41,371 nucleotides of DNA from a virus (taxonomy: Duplodnaviria > Caudoviricetes), in IMG/VR virus record IMGVR_UViG_3300032233_001678, positions 1 to 41,371 of that record; one strand, written 5' to 3'. The position numbers were made by a program, and so were the translations under genes. Below the pieces are notes generated by a model. It was given only the letters and a program-made list of their open reading frames with translations. It was not told the DNA's origin and ran no database searches. Of the stretch, positions 2,950 through 34,132 are shown piece after piece (within the stretch, counting starts at the first letter, position 1; every line of letters begins with the position of its first letter).

Positions 2950-4221
2950 ATGTCTTACACAAGAATCCCTGTCGAAAACGACAAAAACCTCGAAATATTT
3001 ACTATTGAAGATTTCTTAACAGATGAAGAATGTGATCATTTATGTAATCTAATAGAAAGAAGTAATGTAAGGTCTACAGTATCTGGAACGGGTTATACCC
3101 AAAGTGTTGTTAGTGACTTTAGAACAAGCTCAACAGCAACTTTAAATAATGGAGATCCAATAGTAGATGCTATCGATACAAGAATTGCAGATGAATTAGG
3201 AGTACCAAAAGAAAATGGGGAATCATTTCAAGGCCAATTATACGAAGTAGGACAACAATTCAAACATCACCACGATTATTTTAGTGGGGACAGTTATAAT
3301 AACCATTGCTTATTCAGCGGACAAAGAACATACACTTGTATGATCTACCTAAATGATGTTGAAGAGGGTGGTGAAACAGATTTCTTAGAAATTAATACTA
3401 CTTTCTCTCCTAAAAAAGGAATGGCTATAGTTTGGAAAAATTCAAACGGAACTGGTACAGAAAATCCTGCTTCATTACATGCTGGTATGCCTGTTATTAA
3501 AGGCAGAAAAATGATTATAACAAAGTGGTATAGAGAACATAAGTGGGATATGGCTAGAGATACTAAATTAAAGGAGCAATTTGAAAAACAAATGGCAGCT
3601 GTCCAAACCAAAGCCCAACCTGTTTTCTCTAAAACATTTAAATCAGCTGATGATCTTCCTAGATTATCTCCATTAGGATTTAAAGTGGTAAAAGTACCTA
3701 CTAATACTTGGAGATTAATTCAAGAAGCATATAAACTATTAGAAAACGTAAAGACAGAAGAAAACTGGGAAGGTATTACAAACTTTATTTATGATAAAGA
3801 CGGTAACGCTCCTGTTGAAATCTACAACATGGACTATTGCCATAGAATTAAAGAAATTATCCAGGAAGAATTACAACCAGTTCATGAAGAGTTTATTGGT
3901 AATAAAGAAAAACTTGTACCAAAATGTATTTATGGTATTAGATCTTATAAAAATGGTGCTATATTAAAAAACCATACTGATACTTTACTTACACATCATA
4001 TATCATCTATTATTATCGTTGATAAAAAAGTAGATAAAGATTGGCCATTAGATATTCAAGACCATGAAGGTAATTGGCATCAAGTTTATACTGAACCTGG
4101 TGATATGATTCTATATGAATCTGCTACTAATTTACATGGTAGAATAGAGCCATTTGAAGGTGAATATTACAGAAATTTCTTCTTACATTATACATTAGCG
4201 GATTATAAATTTATAGGTTAA
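2950..4221 (+). CDS. two-domain 2OG-Fe(II) dioxygenase; N-terminal prolyl-4-hydroxylase-like domain plus a second 2OG-Fe(II) domain
   Basis: Domain 1: DFLTDEEC, RTSS, YEVGQQFKHHHDY, QRTYTCMIYLNDVEEGGETDF, LHAGMPV..GRK..ITKW. Domain 2: YGIRSY..GA.LKNHTD, PGDMILYES, HGR. Confidence 0.9.
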   Translation: MSYTRIPVENDKNLEIFTIEDFLTDEECDHLCNLIERSNVRSTVSGTGYTQSVVSDFRTSSTATLNNGDPIVDAIDTRIADELGVPKENGESFQGQLYEVGQQFKHHHDYFSGDSYNNHCLFSGQRTYTCMIYLNDVEEGGETDFLEINTTFSPKKGMAIVWKNSNGTGTENPASLHAGMPVIKGRKMIITKWYREHKWDMARDTKLKEQFEKQMAAVQTKAQPVFSKTFKSADDLPRLSPLGFKVVKVPTNTWRLIQEAYKLLENVKTEENWEGITNFIYDKDGNAPVEIYNMDYCHRIKEIIQEELQPVHEEFIGNKEKLVPKCIYGIRSYKNGAILKNHTDTLLTHHISSIIIVDKKVDKDWPLDIQDHEGNWHQVYTEPGDMILYESATNLHGRIEPFEGEYYRNFFLHYTLADYKFIG

Positions 4222-4223
4222 CA

Positions 4224-7200
4224 ATGGACTATGTTGTTTACAGCACTAGTAATTCCGACTATCAGTCTTGGCAAGGTCGGTTATTAGAACACTCATTTAA
4301 AAAAGTTAATCAACCTGGTAAATTGATTAGATTATGTAGCTTTAATGCTCATGATCCTCATAGACCCTTTGACACTTCTGATATTGCCGAAGTTATACAA
4401 TTACCAGATTACAGAACTAGATGGAGAGAATTTACTAACGATCTAGATAAGGATTATGGTATTGCAAACAAAACAGAATCTCTTAAATACTGGCTATCTA
4501 ACTATCCCGGACTAAAAGATACAGATAATGTATTATTTATTGATCCCGATATGGTATTTGTAAAACCAGTTACTGAAACAACAACTCAAGGTACTGTTAT
4601 TGCTCAGAGGTGGATTGATGATGGTTCAGAAAATGGTAAACCTTTCCAAACATATGCAAGTCATATTAAGGATAAGTTAAAACCGGATACTGTATTTATG
4701 TATCCTTATATTGCAACTGTAGGTGATTTAAAAAAGATAGTTAATAATTATGTTGATTTAACCTACAAAATGAGATTAGATAATTATCCTCATTTGTGGG
4801 AATCTGAAATGTATGCTTTAATTACTTCTACTTTAGAACAAGATATAAAAGTAAAAACATATGACAATTTAGGTTTTTGTCTTACTTGGGCTGATAGAGA
4901 AAAATACACAAGCAAAGAGTTCTCTGATTCTGTTTCAATACTGCATTTTCCATGGAGTGTAGATGATAAAGATGGTAATAGATTATTTAATAAACAAGAC
5001 TATACCCCTCTTACTTTAAGAGACCATTGGCAAAGACCTGATGCTAATAAAGCAACTAGTTTTTTAGAAAGAAAATTCTTACAACTTTTAGATCATTACA
5101 ATTTAGAAAAACAAGTACAATTTTATTGGAACGATTATGAATTAATTGATTCTGTATTTAATTATACTCCAAAAGATAAATACATAGTATTTAGACCCTG
5201 GCCCGGTGGACCTAATAATGTTAGAATGTCTTTAGAATTAGCATCGTGTATTGCTTTTTTATTAGATTATACTTTGGTTATTCCATCTGATTTTTTTACT
5301 GATCATTCACAAAATAAAGATTTTTTTCATTTATTATTTGATACTAAAGATTTAGGAATTAAAACAATATCTTTTAATGATTTTAAAATTAAATTTAATA
5401 TTAATTCATGGGATGAAGTAAGTAAAATTTCTCATATCTTAACTGAAGATCTAGTAGGTACTCTTTTAATAACAGAAACACCACAAGAAGATATAATTAA
5501 AGGAAGAAAAATATTACATTTAGATGAACTTAAAGATAAAAATATATTATACTTTGATAGAAATCTATTAGGAAATTTTTATTTAAATATATACAGCGAT
5601 CGTCTTCCTGAATTATGTAAATTTGTAGCTCGCCATATTCACTATAAAAAAGAAATATTTCTTGAAGCACGCAAAGCAATAGACTTTTTAAACCCTAATT
5701 ATTATGCTATTCATATCCGTAGAGGTGATTTCCAGTATCATGATTTAAAATTACCAATTGAAACGATATACAATAACATAAAAAATGTTATACCTGAAGG
5801 CGCTAAATTATATATTTCAACAGACGAAAAGGATAAATTATTTTTTAGTTTACTAAAACAACATTATAATATTTTCTTTTATGATGATGTTAAACATTTA
5901 ATATTTTCCGACATTAATACGGATTTGATAGGACCTATTGAACAAATAATATGCACGGAAGCTACAACATTTATAGGTAATAAATTATCTACTTTTTCAA
6001 CTTATATATACCGTTTAAGAGGTTATATGAAACATATTACTGATAAACGATTCTTAACATATAATGTTGAATGTCACCCTAATGTAGAAGAAGATTATTG
6101 GTGGATGGCTACTTGGGCTAGAGATTATTCTGAAGTATTTGAATCTATAAATAAAATTAAATACTTCAACTCACAACTCCCACCCCCAGAACCTAAAAAA
6201 ATATTTGTATCTGTAGCATCTTACAGAGATCCTCAACTAACTTCTACTATTGATAGTTTACTTACTAACCAAAGTGGTGAGAATAAAATTATTGTGGGTG
6301 TGTGTATGCAGGATACAGAAGAAAATTATAATGAGTTTAAATATAAGGATCACTCAAACGTAATTACTCATTTTATTCCTTATCAAGAGGCAAAGGGTGT
6401 TGGGCCTGCTAGATATTTAATTCAACAAGAACTATATACTAACGAAGACTACTTCTTACAAATCGATTCACACAGTAAATCAATCAAGGATTGGGATAAA
6501 ATATTAATAAACCAAATAAATAGGTGTCCTAGCTATAAAGCTATATTATCTACTTACCCTAACGCATATGATCCAGATGATTTAGAGGAAAAATATTTTA
6601 ATCATAAAACTTGTCCTTGGTTAAAAATAGAACGCTTTACAGAAAAACAAAAACTAGTTGCTACTAGTGCTGGTACAGTAGATAAAGATTACCCTATATT
6701 AGGATTTTGGTGTGCTGCTGGTTTCTTATTTACTAGAGGAGAGTGGACTAAAGAAGTACCATACAGTACTGAATTTTATTTTTCTGGTGAAGAAGATCAT
6801 ATGTCAGTACTATCACATGCTATGGGCTGGGATGTTTATGTACCTGAATCTTCTACTATATGGCATAACTATACTGATACTAGAATGCAAAGTCCTAAAA
6901 AGTATAGACCATTGCATTGGGAAGACCACACCGATATAAACCATAATTTAGAGTCAATTTCATCTATATATAATGAAAAACCTGAGTATAAGCGTCAACC
7001 ATCTGAATTTTTAGAATTAGCTAAACGAATATCTAACTTTAATAAAACAGTTAACATTGAGATAGAATTTAATTATGATAATATTCCAATGCATGATATT
7101 TCTAAAGAAGTATTAGTAATTATATTCGCATTCTTTAATTTAGAAAATCAAGAAATATTCCGTCCTGATATAACAGATATTGATATAATTAATCGTAGTA

Positions 7201-7343
7201 AAAATAATATATTCTTTAATATACCTGAACACATCCACCACCAAATTAATTATTGTACTTGGTTTGTTAAGTATACTGATGACACTTTTAGTGAACGTCT
7301 AGTATTACCAATCCAAAGACAATTAAATAAATATTTAATTTAA
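4224..7343 (+). CDS. multidomain protein O-glycosyltransferase: HPAT/SGT1-like (approx. aa 1-295), O-fucosyltransferase-like (approx. aa 320-645) and GT60 Gnt1-like (approx. aa 660-935)
   Basis: YQSWQ..LL.HSF..V.QPG..IRL, NK, IDPDMVF, YPY, WESEMYA; then GGPNNVRMSLE, AIHIRRGDF, LYISTDE, EQIIC..A..FIG..LSTFS; then IFVSVASYRDPQL, LQIDSH, AAGFLF, FSGEE. Confidence 0.75.
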   Translation: MDYVVYSTSNSDYQSWQGRLLEHSFKKVNQPGKLIRLCSFNAHDPHRPFDTSDIAEVIQLPDYRTRWREFTNDLDKDYGIANKTESLKYWLSNYPGLKDTDNVLFIDPDMVFVKPVTETTTQGTVIAQRWIDDGSENGKPFQTYASHIKDKLKPDTVFMYPYIATVGDLKKIVNNYVDLTYKMRLDNYPHLWESEMYALITSTLEQDIKVKTYDNLGFCLTWADREKYTSKEFSDSVSILHFPWSVDDKDGNRLFNKQDYTPLTLRDHWQRPDANKATSFLERKFLQLLDHYNLEKQVQFYWNDYELIDSVFNYTPKDKYIVFRPWPGGPNNVRMSLELASCIAFLLDYTLVIPSDFFTDHSQNKDFFHLLFDTKDLGIKTISFNDFKIKFNINSWDEVSKISHILTEDLVGTLLITETPQEDIIKGRKILHLDELKDKNILYFDRNLLGNFYLNIYSDRLPELCKFVARHIHYKKEIFLEARKAIDFLNPNYYAIHIRRGDFQYHDLKLPIETIYNNIKNVIPEGAKLYISTDEKDKLFFSLLKQHYNIFFYDDVKHLIFSDINTDLIGPIEQIICTEATTFIGNKLSTFSTYIYRLRGYMKHITDKRFLTYNVECHPNVEEDYWWMATWARDYSEVFESINKIKYFNSQLPPPEPKKIFVSVASYRDPQLTSTIDSLLTNQSGENKIIVGVCMQDTEENYNEFKYKDHSNVITHFIPYQEAKGVGPARYLIQQELYTNEDYFLQIDSHSKSIKDWDKILINQINRCPSYKAILSTYPNAYDPDDLEEKYFNHKTCPWLKIERFTEKQKLVATSAGTVDKDYPILGFWCAAGFLFTRGEWTKEVPYSTEFYFSGEEDHMSVLSHAMGWDVYVPESSTIWHNYTDTRMQSPKKYRPLHWEDHTDINHNLESISSIYNEKPEYKRQPSEFLELAKRISNFNKTVNIEIEFNYDNIPMHDISKEVLVIIFAFFNLENQEIFRPDITDIDIINRSKNNIFFNIPEHIHHQINYCTWFVKYTDDTFSERLVLPIQRQLNKYLI

Positions 7344-7349
7344 TTAAAA

Positions 7350-8015
7350 ATGATAGAATTAAATAATGTCACTTTATGCGCTGCTAGTAGTGTTGAAATA
7401 ACTCAACATATAAATGCTTTAAAAATATGTTCCCAGCATATTAAATTTGCAAAAGTAAAATTTATATCAGATAAAGAAGTAAATGAACCTAATATTGAAT
7501 GGGCAAAATGTGAAGAAATGAAAAATATTCATGATTTTAATTTTTTTATGGTAAATGATTTTCCTCAATATATTGATACTGATTTTGTTTTAGTAATACA
7601 GGCTGATGGGTTTATAGCTAATCCTAATAAATGGACAGACACATTTTTAGAATATGATTATATTGGAGCTCCTTGGAGAGACGAACCTGAAAAAGGATTT
7701 ACAGGAGATCGTAGAGTAGGAAATGGTGGATTTAGTTTAAGATCTAAAAAACTTATTGATTTACCAATTAAATTAAATTTACCTAATAGAAATAGAGAAA
7801 AAGATTTATGGAATGAAGACCAATATTATAGTACTTTTCAAAGAGAAATACTACAAGAAAATGGATGTAAATTTGCTCCCTTAGAGGTTGCAAAATACTT
7901 TTCTCATGAATTAACGTGCAGCGATATAGAAGGAATAGAACCTTTTGGCTTTCATGGAAGAGATAGAAGAGATGAATGGTGTACTGAAAACAATATAAAC
8001 TTAAAACAAGAATGA
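7350..8015 (+). CDS. DUF5672-like putative glycosyltransferase
   Basis: LVIQADG, YDYIGAPW, VGNGGFSLRSKK, NED, A..FS.E, PFGFH. Confidence 0.8.
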   Translation: MIELNNVTLCAASSVEITQHINALKICSQHIKFAKVKFISDKEVNEPNIEWAKCEEMKNIHDFNFFMVNDFPQYIDTDFVLVIQADGFIANPNKWTDTFLEYDYIGAPWRDEPEKGFTGDRRVGNGGFSLRSKKLIDLPIKLNLPNRNREKDLWNEDQYYSTFQREILQENGCKFAPLEVAKYFSHELTCSDIEGIEPFGFHGRDRRDEWCTENNINLKQE

Positions 8016-8941
8016 GCAAAATATTTATAGCAATAGCTAGTTATTTAGACTATGAAATAAAACACACAATACTTGATTGTATTGATAAAGCTAAACACCC
8101 AGAAAACTTACGTTTTGGTGTCTGCTTGCAATATGATGAAAGGGAAAAAACAAATGAGCATATTTTAGATTTTTTAGAAAGTAAATTACCAGTTAAAGTC
8201 TTAAAATACCATCATACTGAATCTGGAGGTGGGTGTTGGGCTAGAAACTTAGCTCAGTCGTTATATAATAATGAAGAATATAGTCTACAAGTAGATTCAC
8301 ATACTAGATTTATTCAAAACTGGGATGAAATTGTAATTAATGATTATAATGAGTTAAAAAAAACAGTAAATAAACCATTATTATCCTTTTTACCTCCATC
8401 TTACTCTAGAATGGATGATAAAGGAATTGACTATGATTTTAGAAATATAAATGAATTAGATAAAATTACTTTATCTAAAATCCAACATATTACTAATGAA
8501 TATTGGTTTACAAATGGTGGATATGGAGATGAACAAAACATTAACTTTAAACCAGCTAGTGTAATTATATTATATGGTGGTTTTGTATTTGCTGAAGGCA
8601 ATTGGGTAGTAGAAGTAAATCAAGATCCTGAACATTATTATACAGGTGAAGAACTTGCATTAACAATTAGATCTTATACTCATGGATATGATTTGTACAC
8701 ACCAAGCCAAATAGTAGCTTGGCATAGAGCACATACCCCAATATCAGGAATTAAAAAACACTTTAATAATAGCCCAGAAGAAATAGCTACTGCTAAACAC
8801 AGACGCGCTATTGAACGATTAAAAATGTTAGTTGAAGGTAATGGAGATTTAGATAGATATGGTTCGGGTAATGTAAGAACAGTAGATCAATATGCTGAAT
8901 TTGCTGGAATTGATTTTAAAACACAAACATTAATTAGATAA
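8012..8941 (+). CDS. GT60-like (Skp1 hydroxyproline GlcNAc-transferase Gnt1-like) glycosyltransferase
   Basis: IFIAIASYLD, GGCWARNLAQ, LQVDSHTRF, YTGEE, RSYTHGYDLYTP, YG.G..RT...Y..FAGIDF. Confidence 0.8.
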   Translation: MSKIFIAIASYLDYEIKHTILDCIDKAKHPENLRFGVCLQYDEREKTNEHILDFLESKLPVKVLKYHHTESGGGCWARNLAQSLYNNEEYSLQVDSHTRFIQNWDEIVINDYNELKKTVNKPLLSFLPPSYSRMDDKGIDYDFRNINELDKITLSKIQHITNEYWFTNGGYGDEQNINFKPASVIILYGGFVFAEGNWVVEVNQDPEHYYTGEELALTIRSYTHGYDLYTPSQIVAWHRAHTPISGIKKHFNNSPEEIATAKHRRAIERLKMLVEGNGDLDRYGSGNVRTVDQYAEFAGIDFKTQTLIR

Positions 8942-8947
8942 ATTTAG

Positions 8948-9751
8948 ATGCCTAAAACTATAATTTTAAATCAATCAACACTCCACCCAAAATACTCTTT
9001 AGTAGATGCTGCTTGTAGAGTTACATGGGGGATGGAAGAACACGAACATGTTAAAACTTTTCACTATTACGGAAATGTAAGTTCTAATGGTAATATAATT
9101 GAAGATATATTTGATTGTGTGCCTTTAAAAGAAGGAATTTGTATAGACAAATTTAATAGACTGGTTCAAAATATTACAGACAGAGTAAATGTCTCCGCTA
9201 CAGATAAAAGAGAAGATAAGCGTGGGGAAAGGTTAATAGGTGCTTTAGAGTACTGTTTGAATAATTTTGAATTTGATTACATATATAGAACTTCTGTTAC
9301 TTCGTATGTTGATATAAATAAATTATATAATTATACACATATTCTTAGCAAAGAAAAAGTATATAATGGTCCTAAATATTATTTAGAAAATGAAGGATGG
9401 GCAATGGATCCTAATTGGAAATCATCATTTGTAGCTAGCTTTAACTGTATAATGTCTAGGGATGTAGTTCAAACTTTAGTAAATAATAAAGACTTATTTT
9501 TAAACATAAATGCTCCTGAAGATATAGCAACCGGTAGAGTTTTAGTAGATAATTTAAAATATGCTAATTTAAAAGAACAAGACACAAATCAAACATGGAT
9601 TGGATATGGAAGAGAGATTGAAATGTCTCAAAAAGAAATAATTGAATACAATTCAAATCCATATGTTTTTAATTATAAATTAGGAACAGATAAAATATAT
9701 ATACTTAATTATTTAAAAATTCACCAATTAATAAAACAACATTATGCCTAA
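8948..9751 (+). CDS. putative GT31/galactosyltransferase-like protein (paralog 1)
   Basis: ALEY..NNFEFDYIYRT..TSYVD, MSRDVV, PEDIATG. Confidence 0.6.
   Translation: MPKTIILNQSTLHPKYSLVDAACRVTWGMEEHEHVKTFHYYGNVSSNGNIIEDIFDCVPLKEGICIDKFNRLVQNITDRVNVSATDKREDKRGERLIGALEYCLNNFEFDYIYRTSVTSYVDINKLYNYTHILSKEKVYNGPKYYLENEGWAMDPNWKSSFVASFNCIMSRDVVQTLVNNKDLFLNINAPEDIATGRVLVDNLKYANLKEQDTNQTWIGYGREIEMSQKEIIEYNSNPYVFNYKLGTDKIYILNYLKIHQLIKQHYA
9242..9292 (+). repeat. 51-nt exact direct repeat, copy 1
   Basis: gctttagagtactgtttgaataattttgaatttgattacatatatagaact is identical to 10020-10070. Confidence 0.95.
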
Positions 9752-10487
9752 AATTATAATATTAAACCAATGTACAACTGAACCTAGATGGCAAAACATA
9801 GATCAATTAGGCCAGAATACCTGGGGAAAAATAAACCACCCAGATGTTAAGATGTTTCATTACTATGGAGCTTTCGACGGCGCTGGTAAACCATATGATA
9901 GATTTTCTAGTATTCCTAATAGAGGTGAAGTTATTACGTTACCTAATAATATTATGGTTTGTGGAGTTGAAGATGTTTTAGGAGACTATTTTGATCCTAG
10001 AGGAGAAAGATATATAATGGCTTTAGAGTACTGTTTGAATAATTTTGAATTTGATTACATATATAGAACTACTTGTACCTCTTATATTGACATATATAAA
10101 ATGTATGATTTCTTTGATAAACTAGAAATAAAAGAAAAATTTTATGATGGTTTAAGAAATATGTATGAATATCAATATCTTTTTACTAGTGGTTATCATG
10201 TGATGTTATCTAGAGATGTTGTTAATGTAATCATTGAACATAAAAACGAATATTTAAAATTAAAATTACCTGAAGACGTAGCAGTGGGTGCTTTACTTAC
10301 ACACATTTTAAAATACGCTAGTTTTGAAAATAATCCTCACCATAATACTAGTGCTACACCCTTAGGTAATAATGGTTTTGATCATAAAAATTATTTAAAT
10401 ACTCCTGTTTTTAATTATAGATTAAATACTAATTTAAGAGAACAGCTTTTAGAAATCCACAATTATTTAGAAGATAATAGAAAATAA
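9744..10487 (+). CDS. putative GT31/galactosyltransferase-like protein (paralog 2)
   Basis: Same motifs as 8948-9751: FDYIYRTTCTSYID, FTSG...LSRDVV, PEDVAVG. Confidence 0.6.
   Translation: MPKIIILNQCTTEPRWQNIDQLGQNTWGKINHPDVKMFHYYGAFDGAGKPYDRFSSIPNRGEVITLPNNIMVCGVEDVLGDYFDPRGERYIMALEYCLNNFEFDYIYRTTCTSYIDIYKMYDFFDKLEIKEKFYDGLRNMYEYQYLFTSGYHVMLSRDVVNVIIEHKNEYLKLKLPEDVAVGALLTHILKYASFENNPHHNTSATPLGNNGFDHKNYLNTPVFNYRLNTNLREQLLEIHNYLEDNRK
10020..10070 (+). repeat. 51-nt exact direct repeat, copy 2
   Basis: Identical to 9242-9292. Confidence 0.95.
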
Positions 10488-10497
10488 AAAATTGAAT

Positions 10498-11061
10498 ATG
10501 AATTTAACTGAATTATATTACTATGATGTAAACCAATACCATAGCGATAAAGGGGTAGATCACGATTATATAAATTTATACTATAACGATGAATTTAATT
10601 CTAAAAAAAATGAATTTTTAAATATTTTAGAAATAGGAATTTGGAATGGAGGAAGTATAAAGTTATGGAATGATTTTTTTTCAAATAGCAAAATTATTGG
10701 ATTAGATGCTTATTTTAAGGATAATACTAATAGTATGTTTGCGAATAATCCTCAAATAACTCTTATGCAACTTGATGCCTATACAGATAGTACTGTTTTA
10801 TTATTTGAAGATAATTATTTTGATTATATTATAGATGATGGTCCCCATACTTTAGAATCTCAAATTCTTTGCATTCAAAAATATTTACCTAAAATAAAAA
10901 GTGGTGGTAAAATAATTATTGAAGATATTCAAAAAATAGAATGGATTGAAGCTTTAGAAAATTGTATAGATAAAAATATAGCAGAAAGCTGGAGAACAAT
11001 AGATATAAGAGAATCTAAAGGAAGATATGATGATATAATATTTGAAGTAACTAAAAAGTAA
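10498..11061 (+). CDS. class I SAM-dependent (sugar O-)methyltransferase
   Basis: SDKG..H.Y, ILEIGIWNGGS, FDYIIDDGPH, GGKIIIEDI. Confidence 0.85.
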   Translation: MNLTELYYYDVNQYHSDKGVDHDYINLYYNDEFNSKKNEFLNILEIGIWNGGSIKLWNDFFSNSKIIGLDAYFKDNTNSMFANNPQITLMQLDAYTDSTVLLFEDNYFDYIIDDGPHTLESQILCIQKYLPKIKSGGKIIIEDIQKIEWIEALENCIDKNIAESWRTIDIRESKGRYDDIIFEVTKK

Positions 11062-11084: not shown

Positions 11085-11975
11085 ATGCCAATAACATTTT
11101 CAAATATAAGCGGAACAGGTAATTTTACATTAGTAAACAATACTAATAGTGGAAATATCGTTATGTCTGTTTCTGGATCGTTACCTGCTCCTGTTAGTGG
11201 ATCTGTTTTTTCACAAATAGACACTATTATGCCTTATTTAAGAGCAAATAGTGGTAGTTTAAGAAATCCAAATTTCTTTGTTTACTTTTTAGATGGTAAC
11301 GTTCCAAACGGCTTTAACATCAATGATGGAGGTAATGATATGTTTGATGGAGGCAATTATACTGCACCTTGGCTACGTAATAACACTAGCTATATATCAG
11401 GCAATACAATACCAGTACCATCTCCATCTCTAAATTATACTTCTCAATCAGCAACTTTAACTGACACTAACTTCTACTATGCGGCTTCTGGATATATTCA
11501 GGCTGCAGGTTCGTTTCCTACAGGTCCTCAAAGTGCAATTTATCACCCACTAACAATGATTGGTGCTAGAAGCGGTTCAGGACCTATTGGATTCCAAAAA
11601 GCAGGTAATATTGGAGCTGATGGCGGTGGTTCATTAGTTACTGCTAGTATATATACTGGATCAGTAGTTAACGGATTTACTACTTATGCTTTCTATCGCC
11701 AATCGTTTGGTCAAGCATCTGACCCATCAATATGTGACGTTTATGTATTATTAGGTCATCCAAACTGGGGTTCTGTATTTGATACAGTAGTATCTAGTTC
11801 AGCTGTAGGTACTCAAATTCAAGGTGCTGCTTTATATGCTACTGGTTCATCTAGTGAAATATTAGCAATGACAACATTATTAAGTAGTCCTACATCATCA
11901 GCAATACCATTTAATAATGTTAAAACAGTAGTTGATAACTACATTACATTAGTAAAAACAGTACTTAACTACTAA
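11085..11975 (+). CDS. Ser/Thr/Gly-rich protein, possibly a virion structural or decoration protein
   Basis: Low-charge S/T/G/N-rich composition, DGGNDMFDGGN motif, and its own ATATTTAT upstream motif. Confidence 0.5.
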   Translation: MPITFSNISGTGNFTLVNNTNSGNIVMSVSGSLPAPVSGSVFSQIDTIMPYLRANSGSLRNPNFFVYFLDGNVPNGFNINDGGNDMFDGGNYTAPWLRNNTSYISGNTIPVPSPSLNYTSQSATLTDTNFYYAASGYIQAAGSFPTGPQSAIYHPLTMIGARSGSGPIGFQKAGNIGADGGGSLVTASIYTGSVVNGFTTYAFYRQSFGQASDPSICDVYVLLGHPNWGSVFDTVVSSSAVGTQIQGAALYATGSSSEILAMTTLLSSPTSSAIPFNNVKTVVDNYITLVKTVLNY

Positions 11976-14615: not shown

Positions 14616-14954
14616 ATGAATATAATATACGGAATACTCTTTGGGCTATTAGGACAGATAGGCTCATATCTACAATTACAAGGCGCAATGAAACTAGGAT
14701 GGTTTCCTAAATACTTTTGGCCTGTATTACTTATGAGTGTACCTTTAAGCTGGTTCTACATTAAATCAGTAGAATACTTTGTAGCGGCATTTGATGGTCA
14801 GTTATGGCCTAGTCGCTTAATTGGATTTGGCTTAGGTATAATTGTATTTAGCATAATGAGTCATTATTTATTTAAAGAACCATTCACACCTAAAACATTA
14901 GTGTGTATAGGATTAGGATTAACAATTATAGGCATTCAAATACTTTGGAAATAA
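14616..14954 (+). CDS. small 4-TM membrane protein (DMT/SMR-like topology)
   Basis: Four hydrophobic segments and a C-terminal ..LFKEP.T.K pattern. Confidence 0.6.
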   Translation: MNIIYGILFGLLGQIGSYLQLQGAMKLGWFPKYFWPVLLMSVPLSWFYIKSVEYFVAAFDGQLWPSRLIGFGLGIIVFSIMSHYLFKEPFTPKTLVCIGLGLTIIGIQILWK

Positions 14955-14955
14955 T

Positions 14956-15687
14956 ATGGAAAAACAACTACTAACATCAGTTATCGAAAAATATTACTTA
15001 GGTGGTATTCATGATAAAGTAAAATGGACAATTAAAGATAAAAAAGTACAAGTACTATTTACATCACAAACAAAAGACTTAGCAGGTTCAATCGAAGCGC
15101 CTGAGTTTGATATTGATGATTGTACTTTAGGTATTTATGATACAAATAAATTACTTAAACTAGTAAACATCACAAACCAGTTCCTTCAATTAGAAGTTGA
15201 AACTAAAAACGGCACATCAACTAAATTATCTATTGCAGATAACGAATATGATTTAGTTTATCACTTAGCCGATTTAAGAATGATGCCTACCGAAACAATG
15301 GTATTAGATGAAACACAAATCTCATTTGATTATTCATTTGGTATTGATAATGACTTTATTGAGCGTTATAATAAAGCTAAAAAAGCATTAGGTAGCGACG
15401 AAGTAAAAGTACAAGCATTAATTAATGACAGTGGCGATAAAGGTATTTATTTTACAATTGGTGGTAAAACATCACACGACAATAAAGTAGCATTTCAAAC
15501 TAGCACATCTACATTTGAAATACCATCTCCAGAGTTCCTATACAATGCAGATTATCTATTAGAGATATTTGCTAATAATAAGGGAGCGAATGGAACAGGT
15601 TATTTTGATGAGAATGGAATATTGAAATTAGAATTTATCGACGAAAAAGAGATCAAAGCCTTATATTATCTTCCACCGAAGAACTAA
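14956..15687 (+). CDS. DNA polymerase sliding clamp (gp45-like)
   Basis: 243 aa, acidic and beta-rich, with a GIYD...LL motif, lying between polB and the clamp loader. Confidence 0.7.
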   Translation: MEKQLLTSVIEKYYLGGIHDKVKWTIKDKKVQVLFTSQTKDLAGSIEAPEFDIDDCTLGIYDTNKLLKLVNITNQFLQLEVETKNGTSTKLSIADNEYDLVYHLADLRMMPTETMVLDETQISFDYSFGIDNDFIERYNKAKKALGSDEVKVQALINDSGDKGIYFTIGGKTSHDNKVAFQTSTSTFEIPSPEFLYNADYLLEIFANNKGANGTGYFDENGILKLEFIDEKEIKALYYLPPKN

Positions 15688-15703
15688 TCCGTATATATTT
15701 ATT

Positions 15704-15762
15704 AACGAGATACGACAGGTCTCGTTACGATATATTAATAAACCGCTTACCTTAGGGAAGCA
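15704..15762 (+). promoter_or_regulatory. structured 5' leader of hsp20
   Basis: Hairpin AACGAGA/TCTCGTT (15704-15726) and hairpin GCTT-CC-TTAG-GG-AAGC; 15708-15721 is also complementary to 16236-16249. Confidence 0.55.
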
Positions 15763-15775
15763 CAAAATGTAAAAA

Positions 15776-16219
15776 ATGACACAATTACAACGTTGGGCAA
15801 TGGACCCATTTGACATCGTTTGGAAAAATTTCCTAGATGTAAACTCACAATTCGCAACATTTGAAAACAAAATCAACTATCCCGTTGATATTTACGAAAC
15901 AGAAAACGGTTTACGATTTGAATTAGCCGTAGTAGGTCTCAATCAAGAAGACTTAGACATTCAAGTAGAGGGAGATACCCTTAGAATCACACACGACAGA
16001 AAAGCAGCAGAAGCAGAACGTAACTATATCCAAAGAGGTATAGCTAGACGCTCGTTTGATTTAGCTTACAAAGTAGCAATGAAATTTGATTTAGCTCAAT
16101 TAACAGCTGCTATGGATAAAGGCTTGTTAATTATTGATATTCCTTTATCAGAAGAAAGAGCACCAAAGAAAATTTCAATTAATGCTCCGCTTGAAGTAAA
16201 ACCAAGCAAGAAGAAATAA
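15776..16219 (+). CDS. small heat shock protein Hsp20/IbpA-like
   Basis: NYPVDIYE, ELAVVG, YIQRGIARRSF, GLLIIDIP. Confidence 0.93.
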   Translation: MTQLQRWAMDPFDIVWKNFLDVNSQFATFENKINYPVDIYETENGLRFELAVVGLNQEDLDIQVEGDTLRITHDRKAAEAERNYIQRGIARRSFDLAYKVAMKFDLAQLTAAMDKGLLIIDIPLSEERAPKKISINAPLEVKPSKKK

Positions 16220-16221
16220 GT

Positions 16222-16252
16222 TTTGAAACCTTAAGGACCTGTCGTATCTTTA
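16222..16252 (+). promoter_or_regulatory. Bacteroidota-type promoter for the groES operon
   Basis: TTTG(16222)-N19-TATCTTTA(16245). Confidence 0.55.
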
Positions 16253-16267
16253 TAAAACAAATTTAAT

Positions 16268-16558
16268 ATGAATATAAAACCATTACACAACCACGTTGTG
16301 ATTAAACAGCAAGACGAAACTGAAACAATGTATGGAAACATTGTAGTACCTGACTTAGGTAAAGAAAAACCATTGATGGGGGAAATTATTGCCTCTGGAC
16401 CTGGATTAATTAATTTGAACGGAGTATTAATTCCAAACACTGTGGAAGTGGGTCAGATTGTAATATTTCCTGCATTTGGAGGACAAAAAATTACCGTTGA
16501 CGGTGAAGAGTATGTCGTTTGTAAAGAACAAGATTTAATCGCAATTTTAGAAAAATAA
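16268..16558 (+). CDS. groES: co-chaperonin GroES
   Basis: IKPLHNHVVIK, GNIVVPD..KEKP..G.IIASGPG, EQDLIAIL. Confidence 0.95.
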   Translation: MNIKPLHNHVVIKQQDETETMYGNIVVPDLGKEKPLMGEIIASGPGLINLNGVLIPNTVEVGQIVIFPAFGGQKITVDGEEYVVCKEQDLIAILEK

Positions 16559-16565
16559 AAATACA

Positions 16566-17075
16566 ATGATATTAAACGTAGAACAAAGGATAGAAGAACT
16601 ATCTAACAGTGGGTGCGATATATGCGAACATTTTCCTTTAATGTTAAAATATGGAAAACAATGTGAACACATTACTGAAATGGGAGTAAGAGATGTTGTA
16701 TCAACTTGGGGATGGATTGGATCAAACCCTAAAAAACTAATATGCTATGATATACAGCCATGCTCTGTAGACAATGCTGCTAAGGCATGTGCTGCTTTAG
16801 GAATAGATTTTAGTTTTCATGTAGCCGATACTCGTGAAATTGAAATTGAAGAAACTGACTTATTATTTATTGACACCGAGCATACTTACGATCAAATTCA
16901 AAAAGAATTAGAATTGCATGGTAATAAAGCTAGAAAATTTATCATATTTCATGATACAGCATGGGCTCACGATATGAATAGAGCTATTAAAGAATTTATG
17001 GAAGCTAATCCACATTGGGTAGATGAAGAAGAAGTTACAAATAATCATGGTTTTAAAATTATTAAAAGAAAATAA
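16566..17075 (+). CDS. class I SAM-dependent methyltransferase
   Basis: DICEH, ITEMGVR..VST, DLLFIDTEHTY, FIIFHDT. Confidence 0.8.
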   Translation: MILNVEQRIEELSNSGCDICEHFPLMLKYGKQCEHITEMGVRDVVSTWGWIGSNPKKLICYDIQPCSVDNAAKACAALGIDFSFHVADTREIEIEETDLLFIDTEHTYDQIQKELELHGNKARKFIIFHDTAWAHDMNRAIKEFMEANPHWVDEEEVTNNHGFKIIKRK

Positions 17076-17077
17076 AA

Positions 17078-18697
17078 ATGAGTAAAATAATAAGCTTCGA
17101 TCGTGAAGCAAAAGAAAAACTACAAGCAGGTATTGATAAAGTAAATAAAGCAGTAGCAGTTACAATGGGTCCTTTCGGACGCAATGTATTGATTGAAAAA
17201 GAACACGGACAAGTAGCATCAACTAAAGACGGTGTTACAGTAGCTAAAACCATTACTTTAGAAGATCCAATTGAAAACATGGCTGCTACCGTTATTAAGC
17301 AAGCTGCATCAAAAACAGTTGATCAAGCAGGTGATGGTACAACATCATCAACAGTATTAGCTAATGCTATTGCAACGCAAGCATTAAATGCTACGTCGCA
17401 TGCTTCAACTAATGCAACTCAAATTAAACGTGGTATTGAAGCCGCTGTTAAAGAAGTAGTTGCTGAATTAAAAACAATGTCTGTAGACATTACTAATGAA
17501 GAGCAAATCAAGCAAATTGCCACCTTATCAGCTAATGGTGATACTGAAATTGGAGAATTAGTAGCTACAGCAATTGATAAAGTAGGTCGTGATGGTATTG
17601 TAACTGTAGAGGAATCTCGTTCAGGTGAGACTTCACTTGAGATAGTAGAAGGTTTACAGTTTGATAGAGGTTATAAATCACCTTACATGGTAACAGATAA
17701 TAACTCAATGCAAGCAATATTAACGGATGCCTTAGTATTATTATATGATGGTAAAATCAGTGCTGTAAAGGACTTATTACCAGTATTAGAGCGTGTATCA
17801 TCTGATAATAAATCATTATTAGTTATCGCTGAAGATATTGATGGTGAAGCGTTATCTACTCTTATTGTAAATAAGATGAGAGGTATCTTAAAGGTAGTAG
17901 CTGTTAAAGCTCCTGACTTTGGAGAACGCAGAACATTAATTTTAGAAGACATCGCTGCTGTAACAGGTGGTACTTTAATTTCACCACAAAAAGGTATGAA
18001 ATTAGAACGTTTTAATATGGATTGGTTTGGTAAAGCTAGAACTATTACTGTAGGTAAAGAAACAACTACTATCGTTGATGGTAAAGGAAATACAGATTTA
18101 ATTGATACTCGTATTTCAGAATTAAAAGCTCAAATCGATAATTCAAATTCACCATATGAAGTTGAACGTTTACAAGATCGTTTAGCTAAAATGGTAGGTG
18201 GAGTTGCTATTATCAATGTAGGCGGTGGTACTGAAATTGAGATGAAAGAAAAGAAAGATCGTATTGATGATGCTTTACAAGCTACAAAAGCTGCTTTAGA
18301 AGAAGGTATCGTTCCGGGTGCGGGTATGGCTTTAGTTAATGCTAAGTTCTCTATTACTGATCGCGATAAAACCGATTTTGGTAAAGGTAAACAAATAGTA
18401 TTTCAATCATGTAATACTCCACTTAAACAAATTCTATCTAATGCGGGTGAATCATATAGTGAGTGGTATCTTAAATTATTAAAAGTTACAGATTCAAAGT
18501 CTGTTCCTAATATTAATAATGGAGAAATGGTAGATGCATTTGAAGCAGGTATCATCGATCCAACTAAAGTGGTACGTTGCGCATTAGAAAACGCAGCACA
18601 CGCAGCAATTACATTATTAATGACTGAATGTGTGATCCATGATAAACCATCTGATAAGAAGAAAGACGAAGGTGATATGGCAGGATTTGGAATGTAA
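17078..18697 (+). CDS. groEL: chaperonin GroEL
   Basis: GPFGRNV, TKDGVTVAK, AGDGTTS, GLQFDRGY, GIIDPTKV, and a C-terminal GDMAGFGM. Confidence 0.98.
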   Translation: MSKIISFDREAKEKLQAGIDKVNKAVAVTMGPFGRNVLIEKEHGQVASTKDGVTVAKTITLEDPIENMAATVIKQAASKTVDQAGDGTTSSTVLANAIATQALNATSHASTNATQIKRGIEAAVKEVVAELKTMSVDITNEEQIKQIATLSANGDTEIGELVATAIDKVGRDGIVTVEESRSGETSLEIVEGLQFDRGYKSPYMVTDNNSMQAILTDALVLLYDGKISAVKDLLPVLERVSSDNKSLLVIAEDIDGEALSTLIVNKMRGILKVVAVKAPDFGERRTLILEDIAAVTGGTLISPQKGMKLERFNMDWFGKARTITVGKETTTIVDGKGNTDLIDTRISELKAQIDNSNSPYEVERLQDRLAKMVGGVAIINVGGGTEIEMKEKKDRIDDALQATKAALEEGIVPGAGMALVNAKFSITDRDKTDFGKGKQIVFQSCNTPLKQILSNAGESYSEWYLKLLKVTDSKSVPNINNGEMVDAFEAGIIDPTKVVRCALENAAHAAITLLMTECVIHDKPSDKKKDEGDMAGFGM

Positions 18698-18717
18698 TTT
18701 GAACAAAATAATAAGTT

Positions 18718-19638
18718 ATGAAACAACACACTCTCTGGATTGAAAAATATAGATCAGAAAATTTAGAACAATACATCGGCAATGATGCAGTTAAAGCCCG
18801 CATCGCCGATTGTATTGCTTCGAACGATATACCCCATTTCATCTTCGCTGGTAGCGCAGGAACAGGTAAAACTACCCTCGCGAAGTTAATTGTTAAGAAT
18901 ATCCAATGTGATTATCTTTACATTAACGCCAGTGACGAGAATGGAATTGATATTATCAGAGATAAAGTAAAAGGATTTGCTTCTACATCTACATTCAAAC
19001 CACTTAAGGTTGTAATATTAGATGAGTCTGATTTCTTAACTCAACCTGCTCAAGCAGCACTTCGTAACTTAATTGAAGAATATTCAATGGTAACTCGATT
19101 TGTACTTACTTGTAACTACATTGAGCGTTTAATTGAACCACTACAATCACGTTGTGAAATTCATATTCTAAAACCACCAACTAAATCTGCTGTTGCAAAG
19201 CATATTTGTACTAACATTTTAGATGTTGAGGGTGTTACTTATGATATTAAAGATGTAGCTAAGATAATTAATGAACTATACCCTGACGTTAGATCGATCA
19301 TTAAAGTATTACAATCAAATGTTAAAGATAGTAAATTAACTATCACCACATTAGATGATAATTGGTGTAAACAATTAATTCAAATACTAATTAAACGCGA
19401 TAAAAATGCATGGTATCAAGTTAGGCAATTAGTAGCAGACGCGCAAGTAGATGATTTTCAAACCGCTTATCGCTATATGTTTGATCATATGCCTGAATTT
19501 AGTTACGGACACGATGCTGAATTATCAGTTATATTAGATGATTTCATCTGGAGAGCAGGTGTAGTACCTGATAAGGAAATTAACTTTGCAGCTGCAATAG
19601 CTAAAGTATTAGACACAAATAAAAAACAAGTAATATAA
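18718..19638 (+). CDS. clamp loader AAA+ subunit (RFC small subunit/gp44-like)
   Basis: LWIEKYR, GSAGTGKTT, INASDE, ILDESD, LQSRC. Confidence 0.95.
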   Translation: MKQHTLWIEKYRSENLEQYIGNDAVKARIADCIASNDIPHFIFAGSAGTGKTTLAKLIVKNIQCDYLYINASDENGIDIIRDKVKGFASTSTFKPLKVVILDESDFLTQPAQAALRNLIEEYSMVTRFVLTCNYIERLIEPLQSRCEIHILKPPTKSAVAKHICTNILDVEGVTYDIKDVAKIINELYPDVRSIIKVLQSNVKDSKLTITTLDDNWCKQLIQILIKRDKNAWYQVRQLVADAQVDDFQTAYRYMFDHMPEFSYGHDAELSVILDDFIWRAGVVPDKEINFAAAIAKVLDTNKKQVI

Positions 19639-23362: not shown

Positions 23363-23363
23363 T

Positions 23364-25252: not shown

Positions 25253-25257
25253 AATTT

Positions 25258-25899: not shown

Positions 25900-26654
25900 T
25901 GATACCTAATCAATTTCATTTTGTATTTGGCCTGAAAGAAGACTTTGGAGGTAAACCCTTCAATATACTTCATTATCTAGCAATCAAATCAGCTTATGAC
26001 TTAAATAAGCCGGATGCTATGTATTTTTACTACACATACGAACCAAGCGGAGAATATTGGGATAAATCAAAACCATACTTAACATTAGTACAAGTAGAGG
26101 CTCCAACTGAAATATTTGGTAATCCTATTACTCACGTTGCTCATAAAGCAGATATTATACGCTTACAAGCGTTATATGAGAATGGAGGTATCTATATGGA
26201 TATGGATACTATTTGTGTTAAGTCATTTGAACCACTACTAAAAGAAAAAACAGTATTAGGTATTCAAGGACATGGAAATACACCCACAATGGCTTATGGT
26301 TTATGTAATGCAATTATATTAGCAGAACCTGGAAGTGAATTTATTGAACATTGGTTATCTCAATATATTGATTTTAATAGCAGCTATTGGGACTCACATT
26401 CAGTACAATTACCATTATACTTAAGTCAAACAACAACTTTACCCCTCACAACATTACCCTATAATGCATTTCATTATCCGTTATACACACCAGAGGGGGT
26501 AGATGATTTATTTAAACATAATAAAGAATATCCTGAAGCATATGCACATCACCTTTGGGAAAGCAACTCTTGGTCGTATATTCAATTATTGACAGAAGAT
26601 TATATAAAAACAAAAGACACAACTTACAATAAAATAGCAAGACAATTTATATGA
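25899..26654 (+). CDS. GT32 (DXD, Och1/A4GalT-like) glycosyltransferase
   Basis: MIPNQFHF, ADIIRL..LY..GGIYMDMD, CNAII.A.P. Confidence 0.88.
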   Translation: MIPNQFHFVFGLKEDFGGKPFNILHYLAIKSAYDLNKPDAMYFYYTYEPSGEYWDKSKPYLTLVQVEAPTEIFGNPITHVAHKADIIRLQALYENGGIYMDMDTICVKSFEPLLKEKTVLGIQGHGNTPTMAYGLCNAIILAEPGSEFIEHWLSQYIDFNSSYWDSHSVQLPLYLSQTTTLPLTTLPYNAFHYPLYTPEGVDDLFKHNKEYPEAYAHHLWESNSWSYIQLLTEDYIKTKDTTYNKIARQFI

Positions 26655-27709
26655 AAACAGCACTAGTATTAGGAGCAGGTGGGTTCATTGGCTCCCATCT
26701 CGTTAAACGATTGAAATCAGAAGGATTTTGGGTTCGTGGAGTAGATTTAAAACGTCCTGAGTTTGAAGAAACAGCAGCAGACGATTTCTTACTTTATGAT
26801 TTACGTGATCCTAAAAATGTAGAAGCAGCAATGCGATTAGAAGGATATAATGGTCATCCATTACCTTGTAAGTATTTACCTTATCCCTTCTCTGAAAGCT
26901 TACAATTTGATGAAGTATATCAGTTAGCAGCCGATATGGGAGGTGCTGGTTATATTTTTACAGGTAACAATGATGCAAATGTAATGCATAATTCAGCTTT
27001 AGTTAACTTAAATGTTGCTCATGAAGCTGTTAAGCAAAAAGTTAAACGTGTATTCTACAGCTCATCTGCCTGTATGTACCCTGAGCATAATCAATTAGAT
27101 CCAAATAATCCAAATTGTGAGGAATCAAGTGCATATCCTGCAAACCCAGATTCAGAATACGGCTGGGAAAAGCTGTTTAGCGAGCGTTTATTCTTAGCAT
27201 TCAATAGAAATTATAAGCTAGATGTTCGTGTAGCTAGATTCCATAACATTTTCGGTCCACAAGGTACTTGGAAAGGTGGTAAGGAAAAGGCACCAGCAGC
27301 AATGTGTCGTAAGGCCGCTGAAACTGAAGATGGTGGTACTATCGAAGTATGGGGTGATGGTCAACAAACACGTTCATTCTTATTCATTGACGAGTGTGTA
27401 GATGCAGTATTACGTTTAATGAGACAAGAAGAATTTATAGGACCTGTTAATATTGGTTCTGAAGAAATGGTTACTATCAATAAATTAGCTGAATTAGCTA
27501 TTGCTGCTTCAGGCAAAAACATTACTATCAAAAATATTGATGGTGAAGAATTTGAAGCAAAATACGGTTTCAAATGCCCAACAGGAGTAAGAGGTCGAAA
27601 TTCAGATAATACCTTATATAAAGATAAAATTGGATCTGATGTATATTATCCTCTAGATAAAGGTGTACAACAAACATTTCAGTGGATTAATAAACAAGTA
27701 AGTAAATAA
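26651..27709 (+). CDS. NAD-dependent epimerase, GDP-mannose 3,5-epimerase-like
   Basis: GAGGFIGSH, LAADMGGAGYI, YSSSAC.YPE, YGWEKL, GGKEKAPAAMCRK, GVRGRNSDN. Confidence 0.88.
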   Translation: MKTALVLGAGGFIGSHLVKRLKSEGFWVRGVDLKRPEFEETAADDFLLYDLRDPKNVEAAMRLEGYNGHPLPCKYLPYPFSESLQFDEVYQLAADMGGAGYIFTGNNDANVMHNSALVNLNVAHEAVKQKVKRVFYSSSACMYPEHNQLDPNNPNCEESSAYPANPDSEYGWEKLFSERLFLAFNRNYKLDVRVARFHNIFGPQGTWKGGKEKAPAAMCRKAAETEDGGTIEVWGDGQQTRSFLFIDECVDAVLRLMRQEEFIGPVNIGSEEMVTINKLAELAIAASGKNITIKNIDGEEFEAKYGFKCPTGVRGRNSDNTLYKDKIGSDVYYPLDKGVQQTFQWINKQVSK

Positions 27710-27710
27710 T

Positions 27711-33892: not shown

Positions 33893-33895
33893 CAA

Positions 33896-33997: not shown

Positions 33998-34006
33998 TAA
34001 ATTTAA

Positions 34007-34130: not shown

Positions 34131-34132
34131 AC

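Follow-up and report, generated by a model that had tools for sequence, protein, structure and literature searches.

What does a virus do with three glycosyltransferase (GT) domains in a single polypeptide, and on what do they act? These questions are raised by an IMG/VR virus record (IMGVR_UViG_3300032233_001678; Duplodnaviria, Caudoviricetes), the whole of which, 41,371 nucleotides (nt) at 24% completeness, is the stretch of DNA analysed here (the window). The polypeptide is encoded by an open reading frame (ORF) at 4224-7343, which follows a gene for a tandem 2-oxoglutarate (2OG)-Fe(II) oxygenase. Our analysis suggests that this fusion is likely to be part of a phage self-glycosylation system that targets the phage's own proline/threonine (Pro/Thr) stalks. 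To our preferred account of how it works, cytoplasmic hydroxylation followed by parallel O-glycosylation of the mucin-like stalks by the three domains, we assign a probability of about 0.5. The tandem hydroxylase and the Pro/Thr-repeat proteins, both absent from an earlier interpretation of the DNA (the sequence-only reading), point to the substrate. The features concerned, with positions in the window and in amino acids (aa) of the products, are these:

2950..4221, plus strand: tandem 2OG-Fe(II) oxygenase, OG1 at aa ~14-200 and OG2 at aa ~236-421, two bases upstream of the fusion
4224-7343, plus strand: triple glycosyltransferase, 1039 aa, D1 + D2 + D3 + D4
4224..5114, plus strand: D1, HPAT/SGT1 (GT95/GT96)-like GT-A domain, aa 1-297, DPD motif, PF23452
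5172..6149, plus strand: D2, POFUT2-like GT-B domain (PF10250), aa 317-642, HIRRGDF, STD and STFS motifs
5205..5558, plus strand: recombined allele of the N-terminal (predicted acceptor) lobe of D2, aa ~328-445, GGPNN replacing GGFNN
6177..6200, plus strand: LPPPEPKK linker, aa 652-659, flexible and unconserved
6189..7043, plus strand: D3, GT60-type polypeptide N-acetylhexosamine (HexNAc)-transferase (PF11397), aa ~656-940, SYRD, DSH, GEE and H881
7029..7340, plus strand: D4, optional FnIII/Ig-like beta-sandwich, aa 936-1039

The sequence-only reading had proposed a GT-A + GT-B + GT-A architecture from three motif sets in one ORF, and Pfam, an AlphaFold2 model and structural matches all agree with it. 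Counted above curated cut-offs, Pfam matches placed HPAT (PF23452) at aa 4-257 (E = 1e-10; 41.9 bits against a cut-off of 23.9), O-FucT (PF10250) at aa 320-602 (E = 6e-18) and GlcNAc (PF11397) in D3, with its best stretch at aa 710-900 (E = 4e-48; 165 bits against a cut-off of 21). The model had a mean predicted local distance difference test score (pLDDT) of 90 and a predicted template modelling score of 0.63, with pLDDT below 50 at aa 650-654 only. In structural comparisons, D1 (aa 1-297) had a GT8-like GT-A fold, matching glycogenin (Z = 16.7, root mean square deviation (rmsd) 3.4, 229 aligned residues) and the Skp1 galactosyltransferase 6mw8 (Z = 15.3, rmsd 3.5, 219 aligned); D2 (aa 317-642) matched POFUT2 (Z = 19.6, rmsd 3.9, 281 aligned) and, more weakly, AtFUT1 (Z = 15.2), FUT8 (14.4) and NodZ (14.2); and D3 (aa 656-940) matched ppGalNAc-T1 (8v9q; Z = 21.7, rmsd 3.2, 262 aligned). 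The catalytic motifs are intact rather than degenerate, the core residues being invariant in 50 of 50 aligned homologues: D107-P-D109 in D1; G328, G329, N331, N332, H497, R499, R500, T533, D534, S589 and T590 in D2; and D748, H750, G855, E856, E857 and H881 in D3.

Each domain resembles a characterized family with particular differences. D3 combines PF11397 with a ppGalNAc-T-like GT-A fold and a DxH plus distal His, the features of GT60 that can be checked in silico; its metal-type motif is DxH, not DxD, and we take the DxH and the distal His to be metal ligands. Its tail has a beta-sandwich in place of a ricin domain, and none of the 120 D3 matches listed was a characterized eukaryotic GT60. 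D1 has the PF23452 match, GT-A fold and DxD of the GT95 HPAT and GT96 SGT1 enzymes and, as a phage gene product whose catalytic fold begins at residue 1-3 of the ORF, no type II membrane anchor. By sequence, D1 is thus best described as GT95/96-like without a membrane anchor; a PDB sequence search with D1 returned no solved relative, and the ten matches that were looked up included no characterized member, the sole informative name being a diatom HPAT-like protein. D2 aligns with POFUT2 at a profile E value of 8e-10, including the H-x-R-R, TD and STFS donor-lobe motifs, and has Gly at the position of POFUT2 Glu54, where PEGFN aligns with PGGFN or PGGPN. As Glu54 is presumably the catalytic base of POFUT2, D2 appears to work in an O-FucT-like way but is not a POFUT2. 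An intron or insertion in some homologues was considered and rejected: the long matches represent a downstream second GT60.

The ORF is not an assembly chimera. One contig is identical to the window over 4018-8950, with zero differences, and a contig from another study bridges 4342-5485 with 52 differences, joining the D2 lobe allele to D1. A protein search found 97 relatives, and in locus scans D1 preceded D2 at 130 loci, the window among them. Clustering at 90% identity reduces these loci to 57 groups; D3 belongs to the same ORF in 53 groups and D4 is present in 15, some of the ORFs being truncated by contig ends. The holders include several aquatic phage lineages, giant-virus contigs (L017, L055, L091 and L123) and bacterial contigs (L154, L155 and L157); an identical protein, P0121, sits on a 110-kb contig. 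In some forms there is also another GT60 or a PLOD-type GT domain. In a scan of 36 of 150 listed matches for alternative architectures, other proteins had a different domain order, split forms, or D1 fused to PqqD, P4H, GT60 or O-FucT; single chains include P0169 (D1+GT60+OG1+OG2) and P0179 (D1+PqqD+P4H). Among 50,697 records of cultured or annotated phages, none carried the fusion and six matched single domains. A search of a genome index yielded a single match over the full length; it lies on a short contig, possibly a phage contaminant, in an assembly labelled as protist. No RNA data set was listed as a holder. We found no description of the fusion, or of phage hydroxyproline (Hyp) glycosylation, in the open-access literature. 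The architecture, which the sequence-only reading had called novel, is therefore undescribed there but not rare: it is widespread in metagenomes.

The gene directly upstream suggests what the substrate may look like. OG1 is a homologue of collagen/plant-type prolyl 4-hydroxylases (P4Hs), matching P4Hs in PDB at E values of 3.5e-31 to 7.7e-19, and has their HxD...H, Lys and RTS motifs; we take the HxD...H to be the iron ligands and the Lys to be the 2-oxoglutarate ligand. R58, H107, D109, H177 and K187, and H342, D344 and H396, were kept in at least 95% of 75 oxygenase homologues. OG2, for which a PDB sequence search gave no informative match, is an oxygenase that travels with D2. Fifty groups had at least 1 kb of upstream DNA, and in 44 of them the tandem P4H was the gene immediately preceding the fusion. 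Four groups without the tandem hydroxylase, as well as L010 and L062, have DUF6065 behind a small oxygenase-like gene (seen at L015:17600-19839 and in L021, L049 and L096), a pair that possibly takes its place.

Fusion loci often encode ORFs with long TP, AP, SP or PTT repeats, and a Pro/Thr stretch of at least 60 aa lay within 10 kb of the fusion in 20 of the 34 groups with at least 10 kb of flank. We compared whole records using 50 long virus records, picked by length from 69 candidates, with control relatives found via DNA polymerase, tail sheath and ribonucleotide reductase (RNR). Two repeat patterns were used and at least three matches per record were scored as positive; the second pattern was designed after record G006 had been seen and was then applied to all 50 records. 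Repeats were present in 10 of 12 fusion records, in 3 of 10 records with a stand-alone GT60 (a class to which G042 was assigned by family search) and in none of 28 records without GT60, 15 of which were at least 70% complete. When only records at least 70% complete were counted, 5 of 6 GT60-positive and 0 of 15 GT60-free records carried repeats. The Fisher p value was 8e-8, or 3e-6 after near-identical fusion records were collapsed to 7/9; because the records are related, these values overstate independence and are only indicative. One of the two fusion records scored as negative, G009, has a PTPPP-type repeat that the patterns hardly catch, and the other, G008, is 31% complete. Three of five further, short fusion records were positive. 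G006, which is complete and has no pattern-1 matches, was rejected as an exception as it carries another repeat type. The ends of its contig G006:C1 (L500:15042-19916 and L492:1-4416) hold ORF segments, at least 1625 and 1471 aa long, that carry PSPG and Pro/Thr repeats and possibly belong to one giant protein.

The pairing of fusion and repeats recurs in T4-like phages, crAss-like phages, a giant-virus bin (G007, with 145 Pro/Thr pattern matches) and bacteria, in which the copies on L154, L155 and L157 adjoin Pro/Thr-repeat ORFs; in G002 and G006 the repeat genes are distant from the fusion. In cultured XacN1, a D3 homologue (ORF334) adjoins a carbamoyltransferase, and the genome has 27 (PT)n matches versus 1 in its control, with stretches in ORF232-234 and 236. 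At least two virion glycoproteins of XacN1 were detected by Schiff staining, according to the text and the Fig. S4 legend of PMC5852040. Tail-gene neighbourhoods and the crAss-like case suggest that the repeat proteins are located in the virion.

Several observations weigh against the stalks being the substrate. The window, 24% complete, has no Pro/Thr-repeat ORF in its 41 kb, and its own stalk-family gene, at 11085-11975, has no stalk. When loci were anchored on the repeats instead, 5 of 76 viral loci of at least 5 kb (the 76 taken from about 740 estimated) had any D1, D2, D3 or OG1 match and none had D1 with D2, and of 31 fusion-free loci of at least 10 kb anchored on tail sheath, 3 had stalks. 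Seven of the ten stand-alone-GT60 records, mostly incomplete, lack repeats, and cultured S-SCSM1 has D2 and OG2 yet one repeat match, the same as its control. PHROG scans of fusion-linked phage repeat proteins gave no convincing structural family, and the XacN1 glycoprotein bands are not tied to named proteins in the text of PMC5852040. PBCV-1 has a P4H, yet Hyp was undetected in its virions in the account of PMC7019647. Finally, four groups (L011, L021, L049 and L096) keep fusion and repeats without a tandem P4H nearby, and G002, which is 89% complete, has no tandem P4H. Because of these cases Hyp is probably not obligatory, Thr/Ser acceptors sufficing for part of the reaction.

Domain identities, intact motifs, gene linkage and repeat co-occurrence were observed directly, and from them we infer the individual steps of the preferred account. 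The reactions would take place in the host cytoplasm, on the phage's own virion proteins with long Pro/Thr/Ser/Ala repeats, which resemble mucins or arabinogalactan proteins. OG1 would hydroxylate repeat prolines and OG2 would make a second kind of hydroxyl; next, D3 would put an alpha-HexNAc on Thr or Hyp, D1 a sugar on Hyp or Ser, and D2, paired with OG2, would add a GDP-L-sugar of the L-fucose or L-galactose type. For the most part the domains would each start glycans in parallel, at separate hydroxyls, instead of working as a single conveyor. Carbamoyl-, methyl- and additional glycosyltransferases encoded nearby would decorate what they build. Such a coat would make the stalks stiff, hydrated and resistant to proteases, and it would be varied by swaps of the D2 acceptor lobe.

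The behaviour of OG2 and D2 bears on whether the domains act in parallel. OG2 alone directly precedes a stand-alone D2 in nine loci; where inspected, the pair is preceded by repeat-bearing proteins, one of which matches a virion structural family (E = 8e-226), and followed by a carbamoyltransferase. GT60 and D1 were not found in the D2-bearing records G057 (complete) and G058 (84% complete), the D1 search having no positive control, and the complete genome of S-SCSM1, in which OG2 is adjacent to D2, has neither GT60 nor D1. A Novosphingobium contig (L162) encodes OG2 and D2 as a fusion. Because OG2-D2 occurs without GT60 or D1, D2 needs neither a D3-made primer nor D1. GT60 enzymes initiate on Thr of mucins and Hyp of Skp1, as described in PMC8724618, and GT95 acts on Hyp and the related GT96 on Ser, as described in PMC8012813; parallel action is favoured because OG2-D2 stands alone and the GT60, GT95/96 and POFUT2 relatives initiate on peptide. 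The processive chain on one acceptor that the sequence-only reading envisaged fares poorly, as the nearest characterized relatives add the first sugar to peptide, the domains are split or reordered and D2 occurs without GT60 and D1. The cooperating domains are neither obligate nor fixed in order, given the split, reordered and stand-alone forms, and the ORF thus lacks the fixed order and co-occurrence of a processive multi-domain polymerase of the LARGE1 or chondroitin-synthase type. A minimal crAss-like cassette at L069:3481-14931, also seen in L067-L075 and L163, consists of repeat-bearing virion proteins, OG2, D2, a carbamoyltransferase and a 180-aa gene, c7.

D2 also carries the main peculiarity of the window's lineage. 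Over aa 317-470 it has 49-51% identity with the sister proteins P0002 and P0003, versus 80-91% elsewhere, and DNA identity is 59-67% in the lobe versus 77-98% outside, with the drop at about nt 990-1350 of the ORF. The tree built from aa 328-445 places the window with P0023 and L090 (support 100/99), whereas in a quick tree of the flanking domains it joins P0002-P0006. Approximately unbiased (AU) tests rejected each grouping on the other partition (p = 1e-7 and 3e-37), using 17 of 30 tree rows and groups named after the identities and trees had been seen. By these comparisons, the N-terminal lobe of D2 in this lineage is a recombined allele. It is fixed in nine of nine cluster members, is conserved within the cluster at 89.9% versus 92-94% for neighbouring domains and is common to two distant lineages; 11 of 14 departures from the family consensus lie in D2. 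From GT-B anatomy we take the N-lobe to bind the acceptor, and its swap may change acceptor specificity. The swapped lobe suggests a coat under diversifying pressure.

It is possible that the same stalks are modified in a sequential line, in which D3 primes Thr or Hyp with GlcNAc, D2 adds L-fucose or L-galactose and D1 caps the glycan, as on Skp1. The nearest solved folds of D1 are elongating GT8 enzymes, including the Skp1 galactosyltransferase; NodZ, FUT8 and AtFUT1 also match D2, which is without Glu54 of POFUT2; a carbamoyltransferase is present in 14 of the 34 groups with at least 10 kb of flank; and Skp1 enzymes are often fused in pairs, as noted in PMC8724618. We consider a sequential line doubtful, given that D2 and OG2 occur without GT60 or D1 in complete genomes, that other domain orders and split forms exist and that D1 by sequence falls with the peptide-initiating HPAT/SGT1 enzymes. 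If instead the enzymes modified host material, be it lipopolysaccharide or capsule (to exclude superinfection), a protein of the host or some small metabolite, the repeats would merely share a variable island with them. PMC7824862, in the part concerned, ties phage clusters of glycosyltransferase, carbamoyltransferase and 2OG genes to surface polysaccharide or metabolite synthesis, and the D2+OG2 of S-SCSM1 without repeats, the window without a stalk and the commonness of repeats without the enzymes all fit this idea. It seems unlikely when none of 28 GT60-free relatives has repeats anywhere in its record, the pairing recurs from T4-like and crAss-like phages to the giant-virus bin and bacteria, and the enzyme families are peptide-directed.

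We regard as very unlikely that the module in the window has been retargeted or partly orphaned, with the stalk lost, the D2 lobe replaced and another protein or short Ser/Thr linkers now modified. Such a history would accommodate the repeat-free 41 kb, the stalk-less gene at 11085-11975 and the concentration of consensus departures in D2; 76% of the genome is unseen, however, G002 and G006 carry their repeat genes far from the fusion, and the new lobe is both conserved and common to two distant lineages. Hydroxylation and glycosylation of bases in phage DNA against restriction is in our view scarcely credible here: OG1 matches prolyl hydroxylases, no DNA-modifying GT was among the structural matches listed for the three domains, and the locus moves between replication, RNR and tail regions while tracking the repeats. 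What speaks for it is that the locus is flanked by a dCTP deaminase-like gene and by DNA polymerase B, and that oxygenase-plus-GT pairs hypermodify phage DNA (work cited in PMC12619734).

The preferred account, parallel modification of the phage's own stalks, can be set beside known systems. The sequence-only reading had drawn an analogy with Skp1 glycosylation and its bifunctional enzyme PgtA. The link to Hyp glycosylation holds, with a resemblance to the GT60 initiator and to PhyA upstream, and not to PgtA, which is a GT2+GT74 bifunctional protein (PMC8724618); the domains of the ORF are PF23452, PF10250 and PF11397. No Skp1-family member was found among the 45 window ORFs scanned, in a record 24% complete. 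The GT60 Skp1-Hyp initiator, found with PhyA in Dictyostelium and Toxoplasma, and the Golgi mucin initiators of Dictyostelium and Trypanosoma cruzi share PF11397, the ppGalNAc-T fold and DxH with D3, going by the description in PMC8724618. Also alike are the preceding P4H gene and the soluble, presumably cytoplasmic nature of the enzyme, whereas the phage protein differs in being phage-encoded, fused to two other GT families and without the GT2/GT74 domains of PgtA. Compared with the Skp1 system, the phage hydroxylase is a collagen/plant/Bacillus-type P4H and the candidate substrate is a repeat stalk. The plant and algal hydroxyproline-rich glycoprotein pathway (P4H, the GT95 enzymes HPAT1-3 and the GT96 enzyme SGT1) has in common P4H with PF23452 and candidate substrates with TP, AP and SP repeats (as outlined in PMC8012813); its HPAT and SGT1 enzymes are separate, membrane-anchored and in the Golgi, whereas the phage domain is fused and its ORF starts at the catalytic fold. 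D2 shares with POFUT2 (4ap5, 4ap6 and 5foe; PF10250) the GT-B fold (Z = 19.6) and donor-lobe motifs, and differs in the Gly at Glu54, in having no folded TSR or EGF substrate in sight and in an N-lobe exchanged between lineages. By analogy, the system may combine the workings of the plant pathway with those of protist GT60 initiation on mucins and Skp1.

Viral precedents exist for parts of this scheme. PBCV-1 encodes A111/114R, with three predicted GT domains, and A064R, which are likewise virus-encoded three-domain enzymes for a virion protein (PMC7019647); according to that description, to which rather than to sequence our comparison refers, they belong to a eukaryotic virus and build an N-linked capsid glycan sequentially. 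A triple GT in a virus therefore has a precedent, and phage virion glycosylation is already known from mycobacteriophages (Freeman et al. 2023, as cited in PMC12619734), where phage GTs and glycosylated virion proteins are again combined. Their glycans are at the C-termini of capsid and tail tube, and the citing passage of PMC12619734 mentions no hydroxylase, Hyp or stalks. XacN1 combines the D3 homologue ORF334 with virion glycoproteins (PMC5852040), the link between enzyme and substrate being putative.

The two remaining parts of the ORF are variable. The LPPPEPKK linker, to which the sequence-only reading had drawn attention, is present before D3, but no role for it finds support, as its sequence differs between members of the 90% cluster and it is missing from distant homologues through deletion. 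The extra C-terminal domain of about 100 aa is real: D4 is a 104-aa beta-sandwich with a pLDDT of 95. It is optional, being found in 15 of 57 groups in 1-3 copies, and its best structural match is generic (Z = 5.9, rmsd 3.0, 89 aligned), so that the suggestion that D4 binds the substrate loses ground. There was no clear fold match in PDB or BFVD and no usable Atlas match, which indicates neither novelty nor function.

The genes around the fusion include further candidate glycosylation functions:

7350..8015, plus strand: DUF5672 protein, a variable accessory gene (cluster c20, 15 loci)
8012..8941, plus strand: a second GT60, stand-alone here and joined to the triple protein in other groups
8948..10487, plus strand: two paralogous genes of ~250 aa (cluster c11, 23 loci), no Pfam, PHROG or NCBIfam match
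10492..11061, plus strand: S-adenosylmethionine (SAM) methyltransferase (PF13578), by Pfam match
11085..11975, plus strand: 296-aa stalk-family protein without a stalk, its N-terminal ~30 aa resembling the Pro/Thr-stalk proteins of relatives
26651..27709, plus strand: GDP-mannose 3',5'-epimerase homologue (PDB E = 2e-82)

A second GT60 is present in 28 of the 34 groups with at least 10 kb of flank. The c11 paralogues are probably accessory and glycan-related, and the SAM methyltransferase is a candidate glycan decorator. The slot before DNA polymerase B, which holds 11085-11975 in the window and a 516-aa Pro/Thr-stalk ORF in L001, is occupied in L287, L327, L328, L336 and L399 by members of the same family, which share the ~30-aa N-terminus, differ in the stalk (absent, poly-Thr or Pro/Thr), have exchanged C-terminal domains and look like modular virion decoration. 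The epimerase homologue was found in 8 of 12 fusion records versus 4 of 38 others; its product is presumably GDP-L-galactose, which hints at a candidate source of the GDP-L-sugar donor for D2. It lies in a second glycosylation cluster at 21902-31002, with two GT1-type, GT2 and DXD-type GTs, two FkbM methyltransferases and two ORFs without family assignment. An NCBIfam scan of eight cluster genes gave nothing.

The window is about 32% GC, has almost all of its ORFs on the plus strand and encodes a T4-like DNA polymerase B, clamp, clamp loader, GroEL, three tRNAs and a tmRNA call. The virus is a myovirus-type phage, because close relatives carry tail-sheath genes beside the same locus. At 43-2919 lie queuosine/folate-type and iron-sulfur genes (GTP cyclohydrolase I, IscU/NifU, IscA and the dCTP deaminase-like gene), with a fragment that we take to resemble QueE. 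The tmRNA call with its tag peptide and the three tRNAs are at 35629-36009 and 33821-34402, and a series of lipoprotein-like, cohesin-like and membrane genes occupies 36013-41178. A promoter and terminator scan of the window stayed at chance level. Elsewhere, a frameshift in D3 splits the fusion at L004:10001-13128, where the near-identical L085 is intact, from an assembly error or as a pseudogene. In the giant-virus bin G007, which is behind L055, the fusion has three D4 copies, and another contig has a 978-aa frame with the tandem hydroxylase twice. At L157:5929-8271 and 14692-19738, L154:6377-7552 and L155:1917-2396, bacterial fusion copies adjoin short ORFs with an RR-type leader, which we take to be Tat-like, a YxxP/WxxP motif and a Pro/Thr-repeat core. 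These loci also have an NTP_transf_5 gene and PqqD-domain proteins, one of which is a fusion with a 2OG oxygenase and an HprK-like kinase; a glycosylated system of the type of ribosomally synthesized and post-translationally modified peptides (RiPP-like), or an exported peptide system, is possible.

O-glycosylation of the Hyp-linked and mucin types is attributed to eukaryotes, as a reaction of the secretory pathway or of Skp1, and to our knowledge glycosylated phage virions are rarely documented. Taking all holders together, we tentatively suggest that a mobile set of cytoplasmic tools for Hyp/mucin-type O-glycosylation is common to aquatic phages, giant viruses and some bacteria. It would comprise two hydroxylase-transferase pairs and a GT60 primer; phages would use it to grow a glycocalyx on mucin-like virion stalks, diversified by recombining a fucosyltransferase-like acceptor lobe, and bacteria to modify leader-bearing Pro/Thr peptides near PqqD-domain enzymes, as a new glycosylated RiPP-like class. 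The toolkit may also preserve relatives, prokaryotic or viral, of the HPAT/SGT1 pathway of plants and the GT60 pathway of protists. Part of the stalk-glycosylation idea can be tested on public proteomics data. If it is true, the abundant phage 'prolyl hydroxylase' and GT60 genes would have a substrate, soluble versions of HPAT/SGT1-like, O-FucT-like and GT60 enzymes would operate in the bacterial cytoplasm, and the long Pro/Thr stalks of these viruses would be explained as glycosylation scaffolds.

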